A DNA stretch of 11,715 bases from a virus (lineage: Duplodnaviria; Heunggongvirae; Uroviricota; Caudoviricetes). A program made the translations under genes and the position numbers. The notes beneath the pieces are model-generated. The model was given only the letters and a program-made list of their open reading frames with translations. It had not been told where the DNA came from and searched no databases. Shown here piece by piece: positions 1,201 to 11,339 of this stretch. The stretch spans positions 1 through 11,715 of the IMG/VR virus record IMGVR_UViG_2778261201_000003, one strand, 5' to 3'. Each line of letters starts with the position of its first letter. The stretch's first letter is position 1.

Positions 1201-1325
1201 AAAACAAGTAGTTATACACTTTGTGGGAGCCTATTGGGAACCCGGTGTTTTCATTTCAAGGTGTAATCCATGCCGGGCATCAGAATGAGATATAATGAGA
1301 TTTTTAGTGTTCCGCTTGAGAGTCT

Positions 1326-1862
1326 ATGATGCTTACCCTAGACGAGATAGGTCAATCTGTACGTAACAATATCCAGTTGATTATTGATCATGTCGGCTTA
1401 CCTCTTGCTGTTGGTCCGCTCAGTGATGATGATTACAAGATTCTGTGTGGTGGCTATGGTGAGCTTGAATGGGACTATGCGTTAAGCACCTATGGCAACT
1501 CCAGAGAAAAGTATGAGTTCTGCATAAAACTTGTTCAGCAAGGTCGGGTTCAGGGAATACCATCAGGAGCAGCAATTTGTGTTTATGGGGTTGAAGAAAA
1601 CATCTTTCGTATCCATATGATCGAAAGGTTTTCTAGAGAAGATGAATCTCACCCATTGAAAGGGCGCATGGTTTTACTCACTCTTATGAGTGCTTTTATA
1701 TTTTGTAAAGCTGTTGAATGTAAAGTTGTCCACATTGTAGAGCCAGTACCAGAACTGGTGCAGTATTACGAGTCTTTTGGTTTCCGCATGGAACAGTGCG
1801 GTTATGTGATGTCTGCAGTCATTGATGAGCTGCAGGATATCTTTCTTAAATTTGCTCAGTAG
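1326..1862 (+). CDS. Hypothetical cargo protein, possibly a GNAT-fold acetyltransferase
   Basis: 178-aa ORF; C-terminal segment KVVHIVEPVPELVQYYESFGF resembles the GNAT beta-strand/helix/YxxxGF pattern; no canonical Q/RxxGxG/A motif seen, so function is tentative. Confidence 0.5.
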   Translation: MMLTLDEIGQSVRNNIQLIIDHVGLPLAVGPLSDDDYKILCGGYGELEWDYALSTYGNSREKYEFCIKLVQQGRVQGIPSGAAICVYGVEENIFRIHMIERFSREDESHPLKGRMVLLTLMSAFIFCKAVECKVVHIVEPVPELVQYYESFGFRMEQCGYVMSAVIDELQDIFLKFAQ

Positions 1863-2058
1863 GTATAGACGAGAAGGGTCTACAAATTGTAGGATACCCG
1901 TCCAGATTACCTTAAAGGTACATCTATGGCAGTCGTTTTGTGCTTAAACTACTAAGAAACGATGTCACCAATCGACATGATCGATTGGCATAAGTTAGCG
2001 AAACAAGCTAGCTTTAAAGAGAGGGTTAGAGGCGCCTTTACTGTCTCGGGAGTTTTCT

Positions 2059-2232
2059 ATGAAAGATCAAAAAGCAACCAAGCCACAGGTTAAGTTCGAC
2101 ACAATGAAAGCATTCGCAGGTATGGGTGCTGCTGTTGAAGTTCTGATGAAGGCTGCTCCTAATGCGTTCACTCACGCTACTGTCTCTGGTAAAGAGCAGC
2201 AGGGTAAGCTTCGTCGTCGCAAAGCAGCATGA
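2059..2232 (+). CDS. Small basic hypothetical protein (57 aa)
   Basis: ATG at 2059 preceded by GGGAG (2048-2052); ends TGA 2230-2232; followed by a strong intrinsic terminator; not in the ORF track because it is under 60 aa. Confidence 0.5.
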   Translation: MKDQKATKPQVKFDTMKAFAGMGAAVEVLMKAAPNAFTHATVSGKEQQGKLRRRKAA

Positions 2233-2252
2233 TCATAGCTGGTGCTTTTTGA

Positions 2253-2278
2253 AAACCCGCCTTTAGGCGGGTTTTTTC
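2253..2278. terminator. Bidirectional Rho-independent terminator
   Basis: AAACCCGCC (2253-2261), loop TTTA, GGCGGGTTT (2266-2274), then T-run; A-run upstream gives a U-tract on the minus strand too. Ends the plus small ORF and the minus-strand operon. Confidence 0.75.
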
Positions 2279-2279
2279 T

Positions 2280-2561
2280 TTAGTGATGTTCTTTGCCCTT
2301 CTGTTTGCTTGTTCTGACCTGTTCCCACTCGATACGTCCTTCTTCTCGTCTTTTGTCTATGTATTCCGCAAGATCCTGAATATTGATGCAACGTTTTGCT
2401 TTTTGTGATGTGCCGATGCGATATGTTGGAACGGGCAACTTACAAGCGTTTGCTTTTGCTTCTGCCGTGGCTGGACTCATGCCAAAGTACTTTTGGCTAA
2501 CTGCTGAGAGTTCAATGTTAGGGGTATTGAATTCAGCCATCAGTAAAAACAAGGTGTTCAT
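2280..2561 (-). CDS. PrtN/AlpA-like small DNA-binding protein (possible regulator or excision factor)
   Basis: Start chosen at ATG 2561 (MNTLFLLMAEF...) with GGAG 7 nt upstream; the MNTLFLL N-terminus resembles PrtN-family proteins as I recall them. Confidence 0.55.
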   Translation of the reverse strand: MNTLFLLMAEFNTPNIELSAVSQKYFGMSPATAEAKANACKLPVPTYRIGTSQKAKRCINIQDLAEYIDKRREEGRIEWEQVRTSKQKGKEHH

Positions 2562-2597
2562 AATTTTCTCCATCAAAACCGGCTGCACCCGGGAAAA

Positions 2598-3170
2598 TCA
2601 TAATTCTGTGCTGGTGGCAGGAATTAATTTCTGCCAGATAGCGGAAACATATTTTGCCTGATGACGAGCATCAGCCAGGGCGTTGTGCCGTTCGCCATCG
2701 AAAGGCATGTCCATTTTTGGGTCGAATCCGATGGAACGCCCAAGCGTAACGATCGTGCGCGCATCGTGATCATTCCAGTACGCCCATGGGCAGATTTGTC
2801 CTGCTCGCTCATAAGCTCCGCGTAAAATTACGTTGTCGAAGTTGGCTCCGTTACCCCAGACTTTTAAATATTTCGTATTGTCTGCGTGCCGATTAATGAA
2901 ATGGCTCAGTTCAGAGAGTGCATCGCTGATCGACAAAGTATCATCAATACAGATTGCAGCTCGTGCTTCAGGGCTTTGTTTCAACCACCACAGGATGGTG
3001 TCGCCGTCAGGTGTGGCCCCTTGCTCCATAGCACTGTCCAAGCTGACAGCCGTATAGAATTCTTGTCCGATGTCTCCGGTTTCTGGGGTGAAGAACACTG
3101 CGCCAATAGAAACGATCGGCGCATCCTTATTTTTCCCCATCGTCTCAAGGTCGATCATTAAGTTGTTCAT
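2598..3170 (-). CDS. DEDDh-type 3'-5' exonuclease (DnaQ-like fold)
   Basis: Motifs MIDLETMG (Exo I), WGNGANFD (Exo II) and HNALADA (Exo III); start ATG at 3170 overlaps the upstream stop (ATGA) with GGAGG upstream. Confidence 0.8.
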   Translation of the reverse strand: MNNLMIDLETMGKNKDAPIVSIGAVFFTPETGDIGQEFYTAVSLDSAMEQGATPDGDTILWWLKQSPEARAAICIDDTLSISDALSELSHFINRHADNTKYLKVWGNGANFDNVILRGAYERAGQICPWAYWNDHDARTIVTLGRSIGFDPKMDMPFDGERHNALADARHQAKYVSAIWQKLIPATSTEL

Positions 3171-3451
3171 CACTTTACCTCCTGCGGCGGTTCTTGTATT
3201 GGCATCGGCTGAGCTATATATAGCGGCTGAACATACCAGCCCTTTGATAACCAACTGTCAGCAACGTTTTTACTTCTGGTTATTGCCGGAATACCTAAGC
3301 CATTGTCTGAATGCAGCCATGCCACCGGATCCTCTTCCAGCGATGCCAGAGCAATTTCATAAGCACGGCGCTCAACATTGTCTCGCACGTCCATGCTGCT
3401 GATTCGTTCTTTGATTTCTTTAATCAGTTCTTTATCGGTAAATGTGGTCAT
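3170..3451 (-). CDS. Hypothetical phage protein (93 aa)
   Basis: ORF translationally coupled on both sides (TAATG overlap at 3451, ATGA at 3170); GGAG upstream. Confidence 0.6.
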   Translation of the reverse strand: MTTFTDKELIKEIKERISSMDVRDNVERRAYEIALASLEEDPVAWLHSDNGLGIPAITRSKNVADSWLSKGWYVQPLYIAQPMPIQEPPQEVK

Positions 3452-3813
3452 TATGCTCCAGCCTCCGGTGCTTTTGGCATTACAGCCCAGTGAGTGATAT
3501 TGACGTTTTCAAGGTCCCCGACCTGAAATGTCCACTGCCATTCTCCGGTTTCTTTTTGCCCCCATGTATACCAGAGAGAACGCCAGCCAATCAGCCAGCC
3601 TTCTCCATTAGCATCAAATAACAGAATACTTTCGTTCGCTGGCGGCAGTTCAGCTGACACTGGTATTACTTTGTTTTCCAGTGCTGCACATTTAGCTTCA
3701 AGCGCATCAAATTTACGCACCAGGTACTCAGCATTTGTTTCGTTCACTTTCAGATCTCGCGGTACACATTTCCCGCGAAGAAACCCTTCCATTTCGAAAA
3801 CATTCATGCGCAT
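3451..3813 (-). CDS. DUF551-like phage protein
   Basis: 120-aa ORF with Trp-rich C-terminal region (DANGEGWLIGW...W...W) typical of DUF551 proteins in lambdoid early regions; overlaps the upstream gene end by 10 nt. Confidence 0.6.
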   Translation of the reverse strand: MRMNVFEMEGFLRGKCVPRDLKVNETNAEYLVRKFDALEAKCAALENKVIPVSAELPPANESILLFDANGEGWLIGWRSLWYTWGQKETGEWQWTFQVGDLENVNITHWAVMPKAPEAGA

Positions 3814-4340
3814 TTGCGTAACTCCGATAACTCGTTAAAACGTTCCATAAACATCCCATAGGCATGGCCTGGCGACAGTGGAATAACTTTGAACATCTCT
3901 GTTGCCGGGATACCTTCCAGTACAGGCCAGAAAGAGCCATCATCAAGCCCGAGATCGCGGCGTTCGGTTGCCAGCATGATGAGATCGGCATATTTCACGG
4001 GCGTACTCATAACCGGGGGTAACCCGTATTTCTCACGGATTACGGCGTCTATTTTTTCTTCCATCCGTTTATAGTCAGGAAGAAGGCGTTTCAGTGGTGC
4101 GGGAATGTCCTGGCAATACGCTTCTGTTGCATCATGCATTAACGCTTCAAAAGCAAATTCGTGCGGTACCAGCTGGCTGCAAAGCACCGCATGTTGGGCG
4201 ACGCTGTAGAAGTGTGAAAGATGTCCTGCAAAGCGACAGATATTTGAAAGGGAAACCGCGATATCGTTAATAACGATGTCATCTTTATTTATCCTGTCAT
4301 AATAAAAATGCTTCCCGGAAAAAGTTTTAATAAATGACAT
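3804..4340 (-). CDS. HD-domain phosphohydrolase, YfdR-like (5'-deoxynucleotidase family)
   Basis: Start at ATG 4340 (MSFIKTFSGK...) with GGAG 8 nt upstream, giving 178 aa; H...HD metal-binding pattern (AGHLSH, MHDATEAY); resembles E. coli CPS-53 YfdR as recalled. Confidence 0.75.
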   Translation of the reverse strand: MSFIKTFSGKHFYYDRINKDDIVINDIAVSLSNICRFAGHLSHFYSVAQHAVLCSQLVPHEFAFEALMHDATEAYCQDIPAPLKRLLPDYKRMEEKIDAVIREKYGLPPVMSTPVKYADLIMLATERRDLGLDDGSFWPVLEGIPATEMFKVIPLSPGHAYGMFMERFNELSELRKCA

Positions 4341-4429
4341 TTTGTTCTCCACGTATATGCGCTGCACCGCGCTGAATTTTGATTGCAGCAATCCAGCCCA
4401 TTTGACATGGGATGATTGCTGCAATTTTT

Positions 4430-5347
4430 TTAAGTTGTTGGATTTTGGCTTTTATCTTCTTTGTAAGAAAGAAGGTCACACATCAAATTAACTACCTTGC
4501 TGAATTGGAAAAGGTCAGTGCCAGTCTGATGACGCCACTGGAATGCTTTATCATCTTCATCATTAAATGTCTGAGATTGAGTATTGATGCGCGAAAAATG
4601 GAAATTTTCGGTAAGAATGAAGGTCACACCGCAACCGGATAACTCCATTTTATCAGCAGTGAAACTACTACTAAGGCTATCGGCCAGTTCGCTTTGAATT
4701 GACTCATGCTCAGCTGAGTAGCGAATAATTTCCTTTTGATCTGCGTAGCGTGATAGCTGAATATAATTCCCGACAGTGAATCCTTCAAATGCATTGGCTG
4801 CACCATTGATGTAGTTCTTCAGGCGTGTAGTCAGTCCATTCTTGATATCACTGATGTTGATTGTTTCTGTTTTCACTGAACCGACAACCTTAATCAGCAT
4901 TGCGCATACCATACCGGCTATTATTTTATTGGTTGTGTTGATTACCAATAATTTCTCATCAGTGCTGTACAATGCAAGAATCAGCGTAGACTTAACAAAT
5001 GCCTGTTTGCATAGATCTACTCGTACGTTATCAATAATGGCCAGTCGTTCGGCACGCTTTAATTTATTCCCGGACATATTTTCGATTGTTTGGATTCGAG
5101 AATTAGCTTCTTTCATGACGACATGTCGGGGAATTATTTTCTGATCATGACGGATTACCATTGCGTACCCACCAGATATCGGAGTTACCAGTTCACCAGT
5201 GACAGGATTCTCTACAAAAGAGGACCGTGAAAATTCTGTTTCCCCGATTTCAGAATAAGGGAGTTCGAGAAGATGCCCTTCAATAGCCTGTATACTAGGT
5301 AATGTTGCTCGGTACACAATTGCGTTACGAAATTTTGGTAATTTCAT
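4430..5347 (-). CDS. RdgC-like recombination-associated protein
   Basis: Start at ATG 5347 (MKLPKFRNAIVYR...) with GAGGAAAA RBS, 305 aa; N-terminal FRN..VYR and KIIPRHVV segments parallel E. coli RdgC. The open frame extending to 5497 is GC-rich non-coding read-through. Confidence 0.7.
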   Translation of the reverse strand: MKLPKFRNAIVYRATLPSIQAIEGHLLELPYSEIGETEFSRSSFVENPVTGELVTPISGGYAMVIRHDQKIIPRHVVMKEANSRIQTIENMSGNKLKRAERLAIIDNVRVDLCKQAFVKSTLILALYSTDEKLLVINTTNKIIAGMVCAMLIKVVGSVKTETINISDIKNGLTTRLKNYINGAANAFEGFTVGNYIQLSRYADQKEIIRYSAEHESIQSELADSLSSSFTADKMELSGCGVTFILTENFHFSRINTQSQTFNDEDDKAFQWRHQTGTDLFQFSKVVNLMCDLLSYKEDKSQNPTT

Positions 5348-5397
5348 TCTATTTTCCTCTGCACAAGATATTAGTTTCTCCACAAAACAGAGAAGAA

Positions 5398-5745
5398 CAC
5401 CTGCGGTGGCAGCCGCCCGGATGGATTGGGTTATGAGCCCGTCGTCCGGTGATGCTCTTCTCTGTTTTGTAAAAAGAGCGGTACCAGCCGGAAGCAAGTG
5501 TACAAACTGGTACCGCGAGGACTACACACAGCATAAAGTTGTGGTGCCGGGTGCCTCCCGGTGCCTGGCGAAGGTTGCACACCAGGCGGGTGGGTATCCA
5601 CAGAAGGTCGACTGTCAGCCTCAACCTTAACCCGCGTGCGCTGAGCCGCATTCACCACAACGCTAAGGATTCTCTCTGGTTGAAAATACTTAGCTGTTAT
5701 GTGCCTGTCTTTTCACCACTTCAGGCTCGGTGGTATCCTTTTAAG
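5398..5745. other. GC-rich, hairpin-dense non-coding element (candidate structured RNA or regulatory region)
   Basis: Four overlapping ORFs in different frames, all Arg/Pro/Gly-rich and not protein-like; perfect 10-bp inverted repeat GCGGTACCAG/CTGGTACCGC (5478-5516); further stems CCGGG/CCCGG (about 5546-5560), GCCTGG/CCAGGC (about 5564-5588) and GTGG/CCAC (about 5592-5603). Confidence 0.3.
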
Positions 5746-5770
5746 TCCGTATACATAAAAGGAAAATCAA

Positions 5771-6016
5771 ATGACTTTTGATGAAAAAGAACTTGATAAT
5801 GCAATTAATAAAATCATCGTAACGTCGCTCTTTTCCTGTCTCAGCGACACTCAGCAGAAACAGTTCTACGAATCGGCTTTCAACATGATCGAGCGTTGTT
5901 GTTTCTGCGATGCCGACGAGCTACCTGAAAAAATCAGGAAACAGTTGGCTGATGCTCTTCGAGTGCGACTTTCTGACCAATTTTCTGAAATGTACTCTCC
6001 GAATTTGGACAAATAG
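5771..6016 (+). CDS. Hypothetical small protein, reverse-oriented moron-like gene
   Basis: 81-aa ORF with AAGGAAA RBS; upstream candidate promoter (TTCACC, 16-nt spacer, extended -10 TGgTATCCT at 5712-5739); 12-bp bulged hairpin at 6026-6051 after the stop. Confidence 0.4.
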   Translation: MTFDEKELDNAINKIIVTSLFSCLSDTQQKQFYESAFNMIERCCFCDADELPEKIRKQLADALRVRLSDQFSEMYSPNLDK

Positions 6017-6209
6017 AAAAAGGCCATTTCCATTCAGGGTCTGATGGAAATACTTCAGCCTGTTCCAAAGCACGGCGTAAAGAGAATACAACTCCAGCCA
6101 TAATCTGATGTTTCCCATTGGTCCAGCTATCGCCGCTCTGATCTACAGGAGCGGCTATGTCGTATGACCAAACGACTTCACCACTATTGTTTAAAATCTG
6201 GACTTTCAT
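5934..6209 (-). CDS. Hypothetical protein (91 aa)
   Basis: ATG 6209 with GGAGG 12 nt upstream, just after the zinc-ribbon gene stop; its 3' end overlaps the plus ORF 5771-6016 by 83 bp, so one of the two may be spurious or shorter. Confidence 0.4.
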   Translation of the reverse strand: MKVQILNNSGEVVWSYDIAAPVDQSGDSWTNGKHQIMAGVVFSLRRALEQAEVFPSDPEWKWPFSICPNSESTFQKIGQKVALEEHQPTVS

Positions 6210-6217
6210 TTTGTTCT

Positions 6218-6421
6218 TTAACCTCCAGATTTCCGCGCATCTAAAGGCGCATTCTCATTTGGTGTGAACTGAATAGTTGTGCTGATATTGATTAATGCCC
6301 CGACACACAAGACTACGCACTCAGAGCAGATAGCAACTTCATCTTTTCCGCCTTTGGCGATGATTTTTTTTGCCTGCAGCTCGTTTGCGCCACAAAACGA
6401 GCATGTGAAATAACGGTTCAT
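6218..6421 (-). CDS. ClpX-type zinc-ribbon small protein
   Basis: YFTCSFCG...AICSECVVLC gives a CxxC...CxxC pattern closely resembling the ClpX N-terminal zinc-binding domain; start chosen at ATG 6421 (alternative ATG 6439 has no RBS). Confidence 0.6.
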   Translation of the reverse strand: MNRYFTCSFCGANELQAKKIIAKGGKDEVAICSECVVLCVGALINISTTIQFTPNENAPLDARKSGG

Positions 6422-6519
6422 TTGCGCTCTCTTACACATAGTATTTAACGAATCATCCGGTCATTCATACGCCACCGGCGGCTACTTCGTGGGCGTCCTG
6501 CCTGTTCGTTGTTTCGCTT

Positions 6520-6555
6520 GGGTACATTATGTATCTCAAAGGTACATTGTCAAGT
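6520..6555 (-). promoter_or_regulatory. pL-like early-left promoter with candidate repressor operators
   Basis: Minus strand -35 TTGACA (6553-6548), 16-17 nt spacer, -10 CATAAT/ATAATG (about 6531-6525); GGTACATTATGTATC (6521-6535) overlaps -10 and GGTACATTGTCAAGT (6541-6555) overlaps -35. Confidence 0.5.
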
Positions 6556-6580
6556 ATAAAAAAACCTGCCGAAGCAGGTT
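6556..6580 (-). terminator. Rho-independent terminator downstream of the cI-like gene
   Basis: On the minus strand: AACCUGC, UUCG tetraloop, GCAGGUU, then a run of 7 U. Confidence 0.65.
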
Positions 6581-6592
6581 CATAAACATTGA

Positions 6593-7267
6593 TTAGGCTT
6601 TGATTTTGTATCTTCTTGGTTTTCCTGAGAAAATCACTGTACCAATTATAGAGCAATTACCGTTGATCTTAATGTAAGGCTCAGGCCAGTTTGGGTTTAA
6701 CGCTTTGAGATAACGCTGTGTCCCATCTTCTATCAACCTTTTGAAGGTGGTTTCACCTGTATCGTGCATCAATGCAATAACGTCGTCACCGTGGCAGGCA
6801 GGGACTTCAGGATCTACAAAAATCATGTCTCCCGGGCGGTACTCATCAATCATTGAATCACCAATCACCCGCAAGATATAAGTCATTTCGCCACAGGGTA
6901 CAGGGCAGGGATAAGTTTCTGCTGTGCTCAAATCAACCTCAGAATAGCCAACTTCTTTCCATGCTCCGGCCTGTACCCATGATATGACAGGGACTAACGT
7001 TATTTGTTTGTTAGTGATTGAAACATCAGGTTTTTTTGTGATGTTCGTGGTCTGGTGTTCTTGATCAAGCCATCCGACAGGCAGGTCGAAACATTTTTCG
7101 ATGTGCCGTGCCATGCTGTCACCGATATTTTTAGTAGCACCATCTCCCATAAACCTGCTGGTCTGGGTTGGCTCGCGATCAATCATGGTGGCAAAGGAAG
7201 AATTCCCGCCAACACCATCTCTCAGTTTTCTGGCGTTAGACCGCCGGATGTCATGGACTGTTTTCAT
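6593..7267 (-). CDS. CI-like repressor with N-terminal HTH and C-terminal S24 (LexA-like) autopeptidase domain
   Basis: 224-aa ORF; candidate Ala-Gly cleavage site (VQAGAW); Ser in VIGDSM and Lys in TFKRL form the Ser/Lys dyad; divergent from the Cro-like gene. Confidence 0.85.
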   Translation of the reverse strand: MKTVHDIRRSNARKLRDGVGGNSSFATMIDREPTQTSRFMGDGATKNIGDSMARHIEKCFDLPVGWLDQEHQTTNITKKPDVSITNKQITLVPVISWVQAGAWKEVGYSEVDLSTAETYPCPVPCGEMTYILRVIGDSMIDEYRPGDMIFVDPEVPACHGDDVIALMHDTGETTFKRLIEDGTQRYLKALNPNWPEPYIKINGNCSIIGTVIFSGKPRRYKIKA

Positions 7268-7357
7268 AAAGAAATTAAAACCTTTGTACCGATAAGGTAC
7301 AAGTATCTTGAAGGTTCATGCTAATCATGTAATATGTATATCGGAGGTACATATTGT
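7268..7357. promoter_or_regulatory. Divergent cI/cro switch region with palindromic operator-like sites
   Basis: Perfect palindrome TTGTACC-gataa-GGTACAA (7284-7302); GGTACATATTGTATG (7346-7360) nearly identical to the pL-region site; candidate pR (TTGAAG 7308-7313, TAATAT 7330-7335); candidate leaderless pRM-like promoter on the minus strand (-35 TTGTAC, -10 TTTAAT ending 7 nt before the cI ATG). Confidence 0.45.
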
Positions 7358-7558
7358 ATGAAAGCGTATTGGGACTCTTTAACCAAAGAACAGCAGGGCG
7401 AGTTGGCCGGAAAAGTTGGCTCAACACCAGGCTACTTACGGCTGGTTTTCAATGGTTATAAAAAAGCCAGTTTTGTGCTGGCTAAAAAACTTGAGCAATG
7501 CACGTCAGGTGCAATTACGAAATCTGACTTAAGACCGGATATCTATCCGAAAGATTAA
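7358..7558 (+). CDS. Cro-like small HTH regulator (YdaS-like)
   Basis: 66-aa ORF from ATG 7358 with GGAGG at 7343-7347; the upstream ATG at 7334 lacks an RBS; motif GAITKSDLRPDIYP resembles Cro/YdaS-type proteins; divergent from the repressor. Confidence 0.7.
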   Translation: MKAYWDSLTKEQQGELAGKVGSTPGYLRLVFNGYKKASFVLAKKLEQCTSGAITKSDLRPDIYPKD

Positions 7559-7589
7559 CAGAACACCTTCAATTTTTAACCACAGAACG

Positions 7590-8102
7590 ATGAGGCTAAC
7601 CGTGGGTAAGCATCACTGGAAAGTAGAAAAACAGCCTGAGTGGTACGTGAAAGCTGTCAGAAAAACTATCGCGGCGTTGCCGGGGGGTTACGCTGAAGCT
7701 GCTGAGTGGCTGGATGTAACAGAGAACGCTTTATTCAACCGCCTTCGTGCAGATGGCGATCAGATTTTCCCGCTGGGATGGGCAATGATTTTACAGCGCG
7801 CGGCTGGCACTCACTACATTGCGGATGCTGTCGCACAGTCTGCTGGTGGGGTGTTTGTATCGCTTCCTGAAATTGAGGAAGTAGAGAACGCCGATATAAA
7901 CCAGCGCCTGCTGGAAGTCATCGAACAGATCGGGAGTTACTCAAAGCAGATTCGTTCGGCAATCGAAGATGGGGTATCTGATTTTCCCCTGTCCCCACAT
8001 CCCGTTTCGCTGCTTCTCCCAAACCAACCTTTCAAATATTTTTCTGAATCAGGTGATATTTCGCCTCTTCTCCTGTTTTTACAACAGGAGAAGCACTCAT
8101 GA
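7590..8102 (+). CDS. CII-like phage regulatory protein (putative, 186 CII/CP76-like)
   Basis: 170-aa ORF directly after the cro-like gene; size and position match CII of 186-type phages; real start may be GTG 7602 (GAGG RBS); stop overlaps the invertase start (ATGA). Confidence 0.5.
   Translation: MRLTVGKHHWKVEKQPEWYVKAVRKTIAALPGGYAEAAEWLDVTENALFNRLRADGDQIFPLGWAMILQRAAGTHYIADAVAQSAGGVFVSLPEIEEVENADINQRLLEVIEQIGSYSKQIRSAIEDGVSDFPLSPHPVSLLLPNQPFKYFSESGDISPLLLFLQQEKHS
8067..8093. promoter_or_regulatory. 27-bp perfect palindrome covering the invertase RBS
   Basis: CTTCTCCTGTT-tttac-AACAGGAGAAG (11-bp arms); the right arm contains the invertase Shine-Dalgarno AGGAG. Confidence 0.4.
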
Positions 8103-8662
8103 TTTACGGGTATGTTCGTGTATCAACAAATCATCAGGATACAGAGTTGCAACGTCTTGCACTTGAGTCAGCTGGCTGTGAGCGAATTTATGAAGAATAT
8201 GCCAGTGGCAGAACAGCTAATCGCCCTGTGTTAAAGGAATTAATTTCGGTGATGAAAAGTGGAGATGAGTTGATTGTCTGGAAGCTAGATCGGATAGGGA
8301 GAAATGTGCTACATGCGCTATTGATGTTTCAAAATCTGCACGAAAAAGGCGTTAATTTTCGGAGTATTACAGATGGTGTAGACCTGAAAACAGCAAGTGG
8401 TCGCTATAATTTCCGTAATATTCTTTCTGCTGCGCAGTATGAATCTGATTTGAATAGCGAGCGAACTTTAGCTGGTTTGGCTATTGCCAGATCCAAAGGC
8501 CGGATTGGTGGGCGTAGACCGAAGTTTAGCGACGAGCAGTGGCAACAGATGGGAGCGCTCATAGCGGCAGGGAAATCACGGCGTTATGTTGCACGTATCT
8601 ATAACGTTGGGCTATCAACCCTATATAAACGATTTCCTGTTACTGGCATTCAAACGAAATAA
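8099..8662 (+). CDS. Serine recombinase, Hin/Gin/Pin-family DNA invertase
   Basis: 187 aa; N-terminal MIYGYVRVSTNHQD with catalytic Ser; resolvase fold motifs (LDRIGR); C-terminal HTH (GKSRRYVARIYNVGLSTLYKR). Confidence 0.85.
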   Translation: MIYGYVRVSTNHQDTELQRLALESAGCERIYEEYASGRTANRPVLKELISVMKSGDELIVWKLDRIGRNVLHALLMFQNLHEKGVNFRSITDGVDLKTASGRYNFRNILSAAQYESDLNSERTLAGLAIARSKGRIGGRRPKFSDEQWQQMGALIAAGKSRRYVARIYNVGLSTLYKRFPVTGIQTK

Positions 8663-8702
8663 TTTAAAAGCAATTTAAAGAGTTATTTGTCTAATGTTGG
8701 AA

Positions 8703-8738
8703 GCCGCAGCCACGTCGTATGCAAGAACGTGCTGCGGC
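8703..8738. other. GC-rich hairpin in the convergent intergenic region (possible bidirectional terminator or binding site)
   Basis: GCCGCAGC(C)ACG pairs with CGTGCTGCGGC across a 13-nt loop; no clear U-tract on either strand. Confidence 0.35.
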
Positions 8739-8805
8739 TGGCTGGCGAACTTTCGATAGTGCGAGTATTGAATGATTTCCAGCCGTTACCGATTTTACGT
8801 GTTAA

Positions 8806-9054
8806 TTAGTGAACAAACCACTCGTCAGCAGATTCCCAGGTATCTTTCAGAGTCTCCTGAACAAAAGTTTTTGCAGAATCCTTATCTGCGGTGCGTGTAA
8901 CAGAAAGGCCATCGTTGCTGGTGGCTTTTACGATCACCTCTACATCGTCATAACGTTTACTGATGCGTCGGGTTAATTCTTCCTTTAACGCATCCACAGC
9001 ACCGGTTGGCATTTTAGTCATTTTTTCTTTGGCTATGCAGATTTCAATACGCAT
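8806..9054 (-). CDS. DinI-family DNA-damage-inducible protein
   Basis: 82 aa, [11 protein letters not shown]...[11 protein letters not shown] parallels E. coli DinI (MRIEVTIAK...ETWESADDWFV); two LexA boxes immediately upstream. Confidence 0.85.
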
Positions 9055-9067
9055 AAAAGTCCCTCTA

Positions 9068-9115
9068 TACTGTGTTTGTATACAGTATTATTTTTAACTG
9101 TATGGATAAACAGTG
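9068..9115 (-). promoter_or_regulatory. Two tandem LexA (SOS) boxes over the DinI-like promoter
   Basis: TACTGTGTTTGTATACAGTA (9068-9087) and AACTGTATGGATAAACAGTG (9096-9115), both CTGT-N8-ACAG; minus-strand -35 TTGACA (9119-9114) and a -10 TAAAAA-like hexamer overlap them. Confidence 0.75.
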
Positions 9116-10213
9116 TCAAGAGGTCTTATTTCTGCTCCTTTGGAGCTCTTCAAAACGATTATGTAAAGATTTCGGATACAGTTCGGTATATACCTGCCAT
9201 AGCACGTTTAATGAACGATGCCCTGTGACCTGGGCGACTTCCTCAATACTAAAACCAGCCTCAAATAAGCGACTTGCCCCTTCTCTACGCAAATCATGGT
9301 ATCGCAGATCCTTAATACCTAATTTGCTTCTTACCCTCTGAAATCCCGCAGTAACAGAAGTGCTGTTATATGGAAAAATGAATTCCGATTTTTTGGGCTG
9401 TCGTTGGACGATATCCCAGGCTTCCCCAAGCAAGGCTACTTTCATGTGGTTGCCTTCCTTTTTGCGTGGATCTTTCCTGTCTCTTACGAGTATAGATTTT
9501 TGTTCCTGGTCGAGATCTTCCCATCGTAACCGGCATACTTCTCCGATCCGCATACAGGACCACACAGAAAATTTGAGGATATCAACGAACGGAATTTTTG
9601 AGCATTTATGAGTAGATCGTTGTTGAAGGCCTTCAATGAGCATGTCCAGTTCATCAGATGCTGGTCTACGATTACGACGGTTTGATTTACCAATCAAACC
9701 AAGTTTAAGTAGATATGGGCGAGCGCTTTTCGCCGGGTTTGATGTGTAATTAATTCCGTATACAGGTTTGGCCGCATCCAGAACACTGCCAAGATAACTA
9801 ACATCGTGGCTGACTGTTGCTGGACCTGCACCAGCGTTGTTTCTTAGCCTGCAATGTTCAATTACGTCATTTTCTGTCAGTTCAGATAGTTTGATCGCGG
9901 AGATGTCACTATCCATAAGCAGTTCCAGCACATATCTTTTAGTACGGCCTGCTTTACCTCCGGCATTTGGGTCATTTAAATATTTGTGTAGTAAGTCACG
10001 GACTGTAAGTCCGTCAACTGCATTTGATGATGGAATGCCATATAGATCTAATTCCATCACTTTCTGTGTTCCCCATGTTTTGGCATGAGCATGTTTAGGG
10101 AATGTTTTGCTTTCCCTGTAAGTGATAACACCTTTTTCTTTGATAATCACATTACAGCGATAGCGTGGTGTGCCATCGGATTTTAGTCGTTTCTCTATGT
10201 TATAGTACGCCAT
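9116..10213 (-). CDS. int: Tyrosine recombinase, dusA-associated integrase
   Basis: 365 aa; C-terminal catalytic region with R...HDLR...GH...Y pattern (RYHDLRREGA, VTGHRSLNVLWQVYTELY); divergent from and adjacent to the dusA 5' end. Confidence 0.9.
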   Translation of the reverse strand: MAYYNIEKRLKSDGTPRYRCNVIIKEKGVITYRESKTFPKHAHAKTWGTQKVMELDLYGIPSSNAVDGLTVRDLLHKYLNDPNAGGKAGRTKRYVLELLMDSDISAIKLSELTENDVIEHCRLRNNAGAGPATVSHDVSYLGSVLDAAKPVYGINYTSNPAKSARPYLLKLGLIGKSNRRNRRPASDELDMLIEGLQQRSTHKCSKIPFVDILKFSVWSCMRIGEVCRLRWEDLDQEQKSILVRDRKDPRKKEGNHMKVALLGEAWDIVQRQPKKSEFIFPYNSTSVTAGFQRVRSKLGIKDLRYHDLRREGASRLFEAGFSIEEVAQVTGHRSLNVLWQVYTELYPKSLHNRFEELQRSRNKTS

Positions 10214-10268: not shown

Positions 10269-10288
10269 TAACGCGAGAAAAATAGCCT

Positions 10289-10411
10289 GAAATGTTCAAA
10301 AATGCACGATAATCATGAAACACAAAAAATTAATCAAACCAGCGTGATGCCTGAAAAAACTGGTGTTTACTGGAATTCTCGGTTTAGCATTGCTCCTATG
10401 CTCGACTGGAC
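10289..10411 (+). repeat. attR-side copy of the dusA 5' region (island-supplied 5' end fused to native dusA)
   Basis: About 81% identical to 1065-1187; downstream of ~10406 the sequence continues as intact dusA. Confidence 0.65.
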
Positions 10412-11339
10412 GGACAGACATTGCCGCTATTTCTTGCGTCTGCTTTCCCGCAATACGTTGCTGTATACCGAAATGGTGACCACAGGGGCGATTATTCACG
10501 GTAAAGGTGATTACCTGGCGTACAGTGAAGAAGAACATCCGGTAGCGTTGCAACTCGGCGGTAGCGATCCGGCGGCGCTGGCACAGTGTGCGAAGCTGGC
10601 AGAAGCGCGTGGATATGATGAGATCAACCTGAATGTCGGCTGCCCGTCTGACCGGGTGCAGAACGGCATGTTTGGTGCGTGTCTGATGGGTAATGCGCAG
10701 CTGGTTGCCGACTGTGTGAAAGCGATGCGCGATGTGGTGTCGATTCCAGTGACGGTGAAAACGCGTATTGGCATCGATGACCAGGACAGCTATGAATTTC
10801 TCTGCGATTTCATCAACACTGTTTCCGGCAAAGGCGAGTGTGAGATGTTTATCATCCACGCACGTAAAGCCTGGCTTTCGGGGTTAAGCCCGAAAGAAAA
10901 CCGTGAAATCCCGCCGCTCGATTATCCGCGTGTGTATCAACTGAAGCGTGACTTTCCGCATCTGACAATGTCGATTAACGGTGGTATCAAGTCGCTGGAA
11001 GAGGCCAAAGCACACCTGCAACATATGGATGGCGTGATGGTCGGGCGCGAGGCGTATCAGAATCCGGGTATTCTGGCGGCGGTAGACCGGGAGATCTTTG
11101 GTTCCTCGGATACCGATGCCGATCCGGTGGCGGTAGTGCGCGCCATGTATCCGTACATTGAGCGTGAACTCAGCCAGGGGACGTATCTCGGCCATATTAC
11201 CCGGCATATGCTGGGTTTGTTCCAGGGTATTCCTGGCGCGCGGCAGTGGCGGCGTTATTTAAGTGAAAATGCCCATAAAGCGGGTGCTGACATTAACGTG
11301 CTGGAACACGCGCTCAAACTGGTGGCGGATAAGCGTTAA
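10302..11339 (+). CDS. dusA: tRNA-dihydrouridine synthase A
   Basis: 345-aa ORF recognised as E. coli DusA throughout; the first ~35 codons ([32 protein letters not shown]) differ from the displaced copy at 1078 and are island-derived. Confidence 0.95.

Follow-up and report, generated by a model that had tools for sequence, protein, structure and literature searches.

In the toxin–antitoxin (TA) systems that combine a Gcn5-related N-acetyltransferase (GNAT) with a ribbon–helix–helix (RHH) partner, namely TacAT, AtaRT, KacAT and ItaRT, the antitoxin carries an N-terminal RHH domain (DUF1778) and is encoded upstream of the enzyme, adjacent to it or overlapping it. A two-gene cassette at the left end of a prophage remnant departs from this architecture. 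Within the 11,715-nucleotide (nt) stretch of IMG/VR record IMGVR_UViG_2778261201_000003 analyzed here (the window), which corresponds to Escherichia coli chromosome with a remnant of ~9 kb inserted in dusA, gene A (1329-1862, + strand) encodes an acidic, GNAT-fold protein of 177 amino acids (aa; isoelectric point (pI) 4.8) that belongs to no sequence-model family; gene B (2059-2232, + strand), which encodes a basic microprotein of 57 aa, lies downstream of it, across a structured spacer (1863-2058, + strand) that, based on RNA folding and an alignment of related spacers, is read here as the leader of the B mRNA. The original prediction, made from the letters of the window, had placed two + strand genes between attL and the end of the leftward operon; both are present as open reading frames (ORFs; 1326/1329-1862 and 2059-2232), both are conserved and, consistent with the unknown function that it had assigned to them, their products fall into PHROGs families labeled "unknown function" (phrog_4350 for A and phrog_2741 for B). 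What was not borne out is the treatment of the two genes as independent cargo, for they make up a single obligate cassette.

This linkage holds without exception: at each of the 104 loci with A that were collected from genomes, assemblies and IMG/VR, B lies 93-197 bp downstream. The pair is a horizontally mobile cassette known from at least four unrelated phage genome positions. In E. coli and Salmonella, dusA phages of the mEp460 type carry it between attP and xis; in Citrobacter, Edwardsiella, Enterobacter and Hafnia, it is located between the gene for the Q antiterminator and the holin/lysis genes; in Photorhabdus, it is embedded in a cluster of myovirus tail genes; and in Pseudescherichia, it lies next to an EamA gene at the edge of a prophage. 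In Shewanella, where A has diverged to 39% identity, B can still be recognized. The earlier description of the genes as att-proximal accessory cargo is thus correct in that the cassette is swapped between related prophages, and too narrow in that it also occupies Q–holin, tail-cluster and prophage-edge sites.

The 1080 bp of the region recur with 99.9% identity in many E. coli chromosomes, for example that of O145:H28 strain RM12581. In mEp460, a functional lambdoid phage, they are 98% identical and lie between int/attP and xis, where the two genes are named gp23 and gp24 and carry the annotation "hypothetical". Of 5426 complete E. coli genomes, 358 (~6.6%) contain A and 562 contain B, and the entire A–B stretch is contained in 360 of 361 A-bearing E. 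coli records. Hits include pathogenic O157, O145 and O111 strains, and the hosts extend to Salmonella, in which B is very common, as well as to Enterobacter, Citrobacter, Edwardsiella, Hafnia, Photorhabdus, Xenorhabdus and Shewanella; no description of either gene was found in the searchable literature.

A comparison of related islands revealed that the same dusA slot carries either A or an entirely different module. About 204 E. coli genomes, as well as two functional phages, SKA5 and Lys8385Vzw, carry B but not A; in these, the interval from attL to B holds a SocA/Panacea-domain protein (PanA; 190 aa, PF13274, E 2e-18) and an orphan protein (128-139 aa, phrog_19071, without match in Pfam or the PDB) whose genes overlap by 4 nt; B begins 40 nt after this pair, with no structured spacer in between, and homology to the window starts just 10-13 nt before the B ATG. 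A and the 128/139-aa protein found in its place showed no relationship. Because Panacea domains have been validated as antitoxins against a wide range of toxins (PMC8832971), the slot can be regarded as one that carries TA-type cargo. The SocA/Panacea gene and its orphan neighbor are likely to constitute an uncharacterized PanA–toxin pair. Loci of this type are L006-L008, L120 and L121, and in L008 an additional CoiA-like gene lies between B and xis.

A is never seen without B whereas B survives without A, the pattern that would be expected if A were harmful or useless on its own. The presence of B behind an unrelated module, with homology resuming so close to its start codon, and the long spacer that separates it from A would also suit a scenario in which the two genes are unrelated hitch-hikers, with B a generic small phage gene and the interval upstream of it a hot-spot for cargo. 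This appears improbable, as B is kept at every A locus, in all of the unrelated contexts and down to 39% A identity, and as the spacer, the terminator and the -10-like box described below move along with the two genes; considering the divergence and the number of transpositions involved, linkage of A and B by chance is very unlikely.

The suggestion that A might adopt a GNAT fold is borne out by an AlphaFold2 model built from 31 sequences (predicted local distance difference test (pLDDT) 93.6, predicted template modeling score 0.90), which displays the complete GNAT order of strands and helices (β1-α1-α2-β2-β3-β4-α3-β5-α4-β6), with the addition of an N-terminal helix (residues 5-23) and a long β4-α3 loop (residues 102-114). 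A Foldseek search of the PDB with this model yielded 290 matches at E ≤ 1e-3, those listed being GNAT enzymes (probability 1.0, E ~1e-6), and matches in BFVD were limited to generic viral GNAT proteins. By sequence, nothing significant was found in the PDB, and distant members of the A family are likewise without a Pfam match, so that A represents a GNAT-fold family that is invisible to sequence models. The family is also small, with 51 homologs, nearly all from Enterobacterales, recovered by a word-indexed search and only 94 at E ≤ 1e-3 when 1.84 billion representatives were searched exhaustively with a profile. An alternative in-frame ATG at 1326 would give a product of 178 aa; homologs and RefSeq entries begin at the codon equivalent to 1329.

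Across 35 family members, down to ~20% identity, W49, Y148 and F153 are nearly invariant, and E100 on β4 (within an E100-x-F motif) and the sequence H-P-L-x-G-R/K-M are common. The Y148-E-S-F-G-F stretch aligns with motif B of RimI, Y-E-S-L-G-F (hhalign; a weak match, E 0.017), and nothing beyond motif B was aligned in this profile comparison, the region of the coenzyme A (CoA) loop included. As to the acetyl-CoA site proposed for inspection, GNAT motif B (the α4 Tyr and the following G-F) and an acidic β4 residue that is a candidate general base are retained, whereas the canonical pyrophosphate-binding loop of motif A, Q/R-x-x-G-x-G/A, is absent and the β4-α3 junction instead reads S-H-P-L-K-G-R-M, a loop with just one Gly in which H109, P110, L111 and G113 are invariant among close relatives. 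A thus combines the GNAT fold and a Tyr/Glu pair that is plausibly catalytic with a divergent cofactor loop. CoA may still be bound through the backbone, and the combination of Y148 and E100 is compatible with A being active as an acyl-CoA-dependent N-acyltransferase, as we infer from the family alignment.

B is, as had been predicted, a strongly basic protein of 57 aa (pI 10.5), with nine Lys and three Arg residues against four Asp/Glu. Its Shine-Dalgarno sequence, GGGAG (2048-2052, + strand), is located 6 nt before the ATG and has a GGAG or GAGG counterpart in all Enterobacteriaceae-type relatives. Homologs of 54-58 aa are found in E. coli, Salmonella, Enterobacter, Atlantibacter, Franconibacter, Cronobacter and Hafnia, and others were identified by inspection in Photorhabdus, Xenorhabdus and Shewanella. 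With 354, 406 and 1451 substitutions at codon positions 1, 2 and 3, respectively, B is a protein-coding gene under purifying selection; the core of its product, FDT..AFAGMGAAVEVLMKAAP..F, is very highly conserved, and the tail carries a QGK motif. When modeled alone by AlphaFold2, B shows only short helices, between residues 15 and 40, with both ends disordered and no β-strand, in a model of low confidence (pLDDT 60.8).

The opposite charges of the two proteins are a conserved property, with pI values of 4.3-4.9 for A across 34 orthologs and of 9.6-10.8 for B in 34 pairs, and they bear on what kind of partners A and B may be. One possibility is that the two form a canonical type II system, with B as the antitoxin and A as a tRNA-acetylating GNAT toxin like TacT, AtaT, KacT and ItaT, as the strict dependence of A on B and the location of the cassette in phage accessory hot-spots might suggest. 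This identification is hard to sustain: B is encoded neither upstream of A nor overlapping it, matches no RHH/DUF1778 model and has no predicted β-strand, while A matches no Pfam acetyltransferase and nothing in PADLOC. Moreover, the tRNA-binding toxins known to us are basic, so that the acidity of A argues against its binding tRNA.

A different use of the same charge complementarity would be that B, with its disordered and lysine-rich tails, is a substrate or an adaptor of A rather than its neutralizer. A would then acylate B, for example on the N-terminus or on a lysine (K50 of the QGK motif being a candidate), or B would guide A to a host substrate that is basic or bound to nucleic acid; neither protein would be a toxin, the effector being B in its modified form or the complex of the two. 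The very high conservation of B, its short tail motif included, is in keeping with this idea, which is nevertheless rather doubtful, given that B persists intact without A in the ~204 genomes and two phages described above and that K50 is replaced by Arg in the Shewanella homolog.

The spacer between A and B was investigated using an alignment of 32 distinct Enterobacteriaceae-type sequences, which supports a series of three to five hairpins on the + strand, modeled here as P1 (1866-1870/1878-1882), P2 (1908-1913/1915-1920), P3 (1968-1975/1981-1988), P4 (1992-1999/2007-2014) and P5 (2029-2033/2043-2047), the last of which immediately precedes the Shine-Dalgarno sequence of B. P3 coincides with what had been described as a perfect 21-bp palindrome at 1968-1988; its 8-bp arms, CCAATCGA and TCGATTGG, are as claimed, and the 5-nt center between them is not palindromic, so that "perfect" does not apply to all 21 bp. 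P2 corresponds to a palindrome, TACCTTaAAGGTA (1908-1920), that had been missed. P3 is kept across relatives with C-G pairs changed to U-G, U-A or A-U and 24 G·U wobble cells in the alignment, P2 changes in Edwardsiella from TTACC/GGTAA to TGACG/CGTCA, and P4 covaries, with both sides altered in 7-9 sequences per pair, as does P5. Overall, 86.7% of the cells pair under the five-hairpin model compared to 26-43% when the partners are slid, and the covariation score is 0.240 against at most 0.079, a value that none of 500 shuffles reaches, this support being partly biased because the hairpin model had itself been taken from the window. The window spacer folds with an energy of -59.6 kcal/mol on the + strand (z -3.6, none of 200 shuffles being as good) and with a z of -2.3 on the - strand, and most of the other spacers, distant ones included, also fold better than their shuffles. 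All matches of a covariance model of P3-P5 (R1) fall in A–B spacers of that subclade, with a single match per locus and always on the + strand. In Rfam 15, no match to 1863-2058 was detected at E ≤ 1, and only sub-threshold terminator-like matches were found at 2181-2284.

Originally, the spacer palindromes had been viewed as likely binding sites for a regulator; they would then be operators through which a dimeric DNA-binding protein controls a promoter of B. The 8-bp inverted repeat is above chance (for arms of at least 8 and loops of at most 10, five registers, belonging to the P3 repeat and the terminator, are observed against 0.22 expected, with 0 of 500 shuffles as rich), its sequence is largely conserved and its DNA symmetry is still 84%. 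Its variation, however, consists mostly of G·U and compensatory changes, such that P3 pairs in 94.9% of cells as + strand RNA compared to 84.4% as symmetric DNA and 86.3% as - strand RNA; the corresponding figures for P4 are 87.5%, 74.6% and 77.3%. Because pairing is better conserved on the + strand RNA, the operator-like palindrome is best explained as one stem of a folded RNA between the two cistrons, in which further hairpins next to it, P2 and P4 among them, covary as well. In addition, no conserved promoter hexamers are found near P3, the stretch between P2 and P3 being the least conserved part of the spacer, and the cassette contains no regulator gene. The other palindrome, of 13 bp, exists as CTACAAaTTGTAG, at 1880-1892 instead of about 1879-1891, where it overlaps the 3′ arm of P1. 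It does not exceed chance (repeats with 6-bp arms and a short loop: three observed, 1.16 expected, p = 0.14) and is lineage-specific; only its right half, TGTAGGAT, is conserved in relatives. In the predicted minimum-energy fold of the window, it pairs into an alternative local stem. A role of these elements as operators is consequently quite unlikely, and the 1968-1988 repeat is probably not a protein-binding site; candidate roles for the spacer RNA are stabilization or processing of the B cistron, or tuning of B translation.

Three other readings of the spacer were considered and discarded. A 43-aa ORF at 1962-2093 and a conserved nine-codon mini-ORF over P3 lack the ATG in ~8 of the 32 sequences, have no conserved stop codon and are not preceded by a Shine-Dalgarno sequence. 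A long-range helix proposed by RNAalifold between UAGAC, in the region of the A stop codon, and GUCUC, 5′ of the B Shine-Dalgarno sequence, could have coupled translation of the two genes; it is invariant in 30 of 32 spacers, shows no covariation and has duplex energies no better than those of shuffled controls (median z 0.16). Finally, the small RNA (sRNA) sRNA-17 of mEp460-like prophages (PMC7719688) is not the spacer RNA, because it maps from position 5478 onward.

The boundaries of the cassette are marked by two further elements. A -10-like box, TATAAT (1291-1296, + strand), is found ~33 nt upstream of the A start, and an alignment of 18 upstream loci showed that a TA(C/T)AAT box recurs 30-40 nt upstream of A in most contexts, whatever precedes it and often just after the terminator of the upstream gene. 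Its status as a promoter is only inferred, as it was not called by a consensus promoter scan. At the other end, an intrinsic terminator (2251-2276, + strand) consists of a perfect, GC-rich stem of 11 bp (2252-2275) followed by a T-run. A hairpin and T-run are found 3′ of B in 12 of 13 contexts examined and, because it is kept after B in essentially all contexts, the terminator belongs to the cassette; that it abuts the end of the leftward xis operon and may serve this converging unit would be incidental. It had been called strong and bidirectional, and the former applies to the + strand, whereas on the - strand the stem is followed by only four T and was not called by the scan, which supports the latter only in part.

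Upstream of the cassette in other hosts than E. coli (L093, ~2900-3000; L023, ~4900-5000), a conserved cAcATcTTTTACAAC box is observed ~32 nt upstream of a conserved TACAAT. This distance is too large for the box to be a sigma-70 -35 element, and the box may instead bind a regulator or belong to a second promoter; in the window it is absent, and sequence from the attL side takes its place.

Other genes accompany the cassette at its Q–holin sites. In Hafnia prophages (L116-L119, ~2050-3109), a RelA_SpoT protein of 319-352 aa that matches PADLOC defense candidate PDC-S33 (E 1e-112) is encoded directly upstream of A and B, between Q and the holin gene, a neighborhood in keeping with a defense-type role of the pair. 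In the Citrobacter and Enterobacter loci (L021-L023, L112-L115), a 63-aa winged-helix protein, with a weak match to DprA_WH and assigned to phrog_331 of unknown function, is always encoded ~120 nt 3′ of B and is followed by an N6/N4 DNA methyltransferase gene; the winged-helix gene is absent from the window.

In the window, the left boundary of the region is attL, a displaced 5′ fragment of dusA (1072-1200, + strand; ORF list and alignment of 1061-1215 with 10286-10440) whose homology to the 5′ end of intact dusA (10302-10430) ends near 1187 and whose equivalent is labeled by RefSeq as a partial tRNA-dihydrouridine synthase. The right boundary is a Xis/PrtN-like excisionase gene (2280-2588, - strand; PF11112, E 4e-23; phrog_1300, "excisionase"), the last of the leftward operon, and a tyrosine integrase gene (9116-10213, - strand) adjoins the restored dusA (10302-11339) at the far end. 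The remnant (2280-10213) is devoid of structural or lysis genes and encodes, from left to right, the Xis/PrtN-like protein, an Rv2179c-like 3′-5′ exonuclease, DUF551, HD hydrolase and RdgC-like (4430-5497) proteins, a 73-aa protein resembling the ClpX zinc finger (6218-6439), an S24 repressor, a Cro/YdaS-like protein, a cII-like ORF (7590-8102) that overlaps by 4 nt the start of a serine resolvase/invertase gene (8099-8662), DinI and the integrase. An STnc100 sRNA is matched by Rfam at 5469-5691 (- strand; 49.1 bits against a gathering threshold of 47, E 3e-8), at a site that overlaps the 5′ end of the RdgC-like gene. The start of published sRNA-17, a 193-nt ArcA-regulated RNA of E. coli K1 RS218 that was reported to have no Rfam homolog (PMC7719688), is an exact match to 5478-5498, so that sRNA-17 appears to be an RNA of the STnc100 family.

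Taken together, these features suggest that A and B act as an obligate pair with a toxin–antitoxin-like logic, in which the basic and disordered B would dock on the acidic acceptor face of A and thereby neutralize or regulate it, while the spacer hairpins would act in the mRNA, and not as DNA operators, by setting or stabilizing expression of the B cistron relative to A. The cassette would be expressed from the prophage as accessory cargo, its most probable role being phage defense or host manipulation. As a package, an active acyltransferase bound by B, on which it depends in a TA-like manner, within a defense-type or host-modifying module is given an even chance of being correct. The more ambitious proposal that the acidic GNAT enzyme, the structured RNA and the basic microprotein form an undescribed, three-part GNAT-based toxin–antitoxin or anti-phage/anti-defense module, with B as neutralizer or acylation substrate of A and the RNA leader setting the A:B ratio, is offered tentatively. 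The main uncertainties are the relationship between the two proteins, in which B may be inhibitor, substrate or adaptor, and the unusually strong conservation of B, together with its retention next to the unrelated PanA module.

Several observations weigh against such a pair, beside the partial bias of the covariation support mentioned above. Neither protein is recognized by sequence models: A matches no Pfam family at E ≤ 0.1, no NCBIfam family at E ≤ 1 and nothing in PADLOC, and B matches nothing in the same three collections. The replacement of motif A by H-P-L-K-G-R-M means that cofactor binding by A is not assured. The arrangement of the genes, with the putative toxin first and a gap of 93-197 bp, is unlike that of known GNAT toxin–antitoxin operons, and no good -35 element is found upstream of A. 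B is 88-96% identical between relatives in which A is 66-74% identical, and antitoxins mostly show the opposite pattern. Furthermore, the survival of intact B behind the unrelated PanA pair suggests that it has a role independent of A.

If the pair is TA-like, defensive or host-modifying, it would represent a new GNAT architecture, with the enzyme first, a structured RNA spacer and a microprotein partner that is not of the RHH type, and a frequent prophage moron, common in pathogenic E. coli and so far merely "hypothetical" in annotation, would gain a function; otherwise, it would be one more phage accessory cassette.

Compared with AcrVA5, a small GNAT-fold anti-CRISPR acetyltransferase of phages or mobile genetic elements that modifies a protein of the host and has a small associated gene downstream, A offers a general likeness; B lacks the helix-turn-helix domain of regulators of the Aca kind, and no link to CRISPR was seen. 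The N-alpha and peptide acetyltransferases NatD/Naa40, Naa20, Ard1, RimI and RimJ share only 9-14% sequence identity with A, which is distinguished from them by its divergent CoA loop, the extra N-terminal helix and long β4-α3 loop, its phage-borne location and its dedicated partner gene. With respect to the GNAT–RHH systems, a TA-like pairing of A and B is plausible, and the features that define membership are missing, as gene order and spacing differ and B, which is basic and better conserved than the enzyme, has no RHH domain; the acidity of A, which matches no acetyltransferase hidden Markov model, probably sets it further apart. The cassette may hence work like these systems without being one of them. 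PanA–PanT modules (PMC8832971) occupy the very same slot, from attL to B, in the sister dusA prophages, SKA5 and Lys8385Vzw, and differ in having no sequence relation to A, overlapping genes and no structured spacer. Finally, the autonomous anatomy of the cassette (-10-like box, A, a spacer of ~190 nt, B and a terminator) is that of a moron. Like the morons of lambdoid phages, and stx at the Q–S site, it is present or absent between otherwise collinear phages, is equipped with its own terminator and -10-like box, and is found at sites typical of morons, next to att or between Q and the lysis genes. Its promoter is putative, and it differs from those examples in that two genes are combined with a conserved and structured RNA between them.

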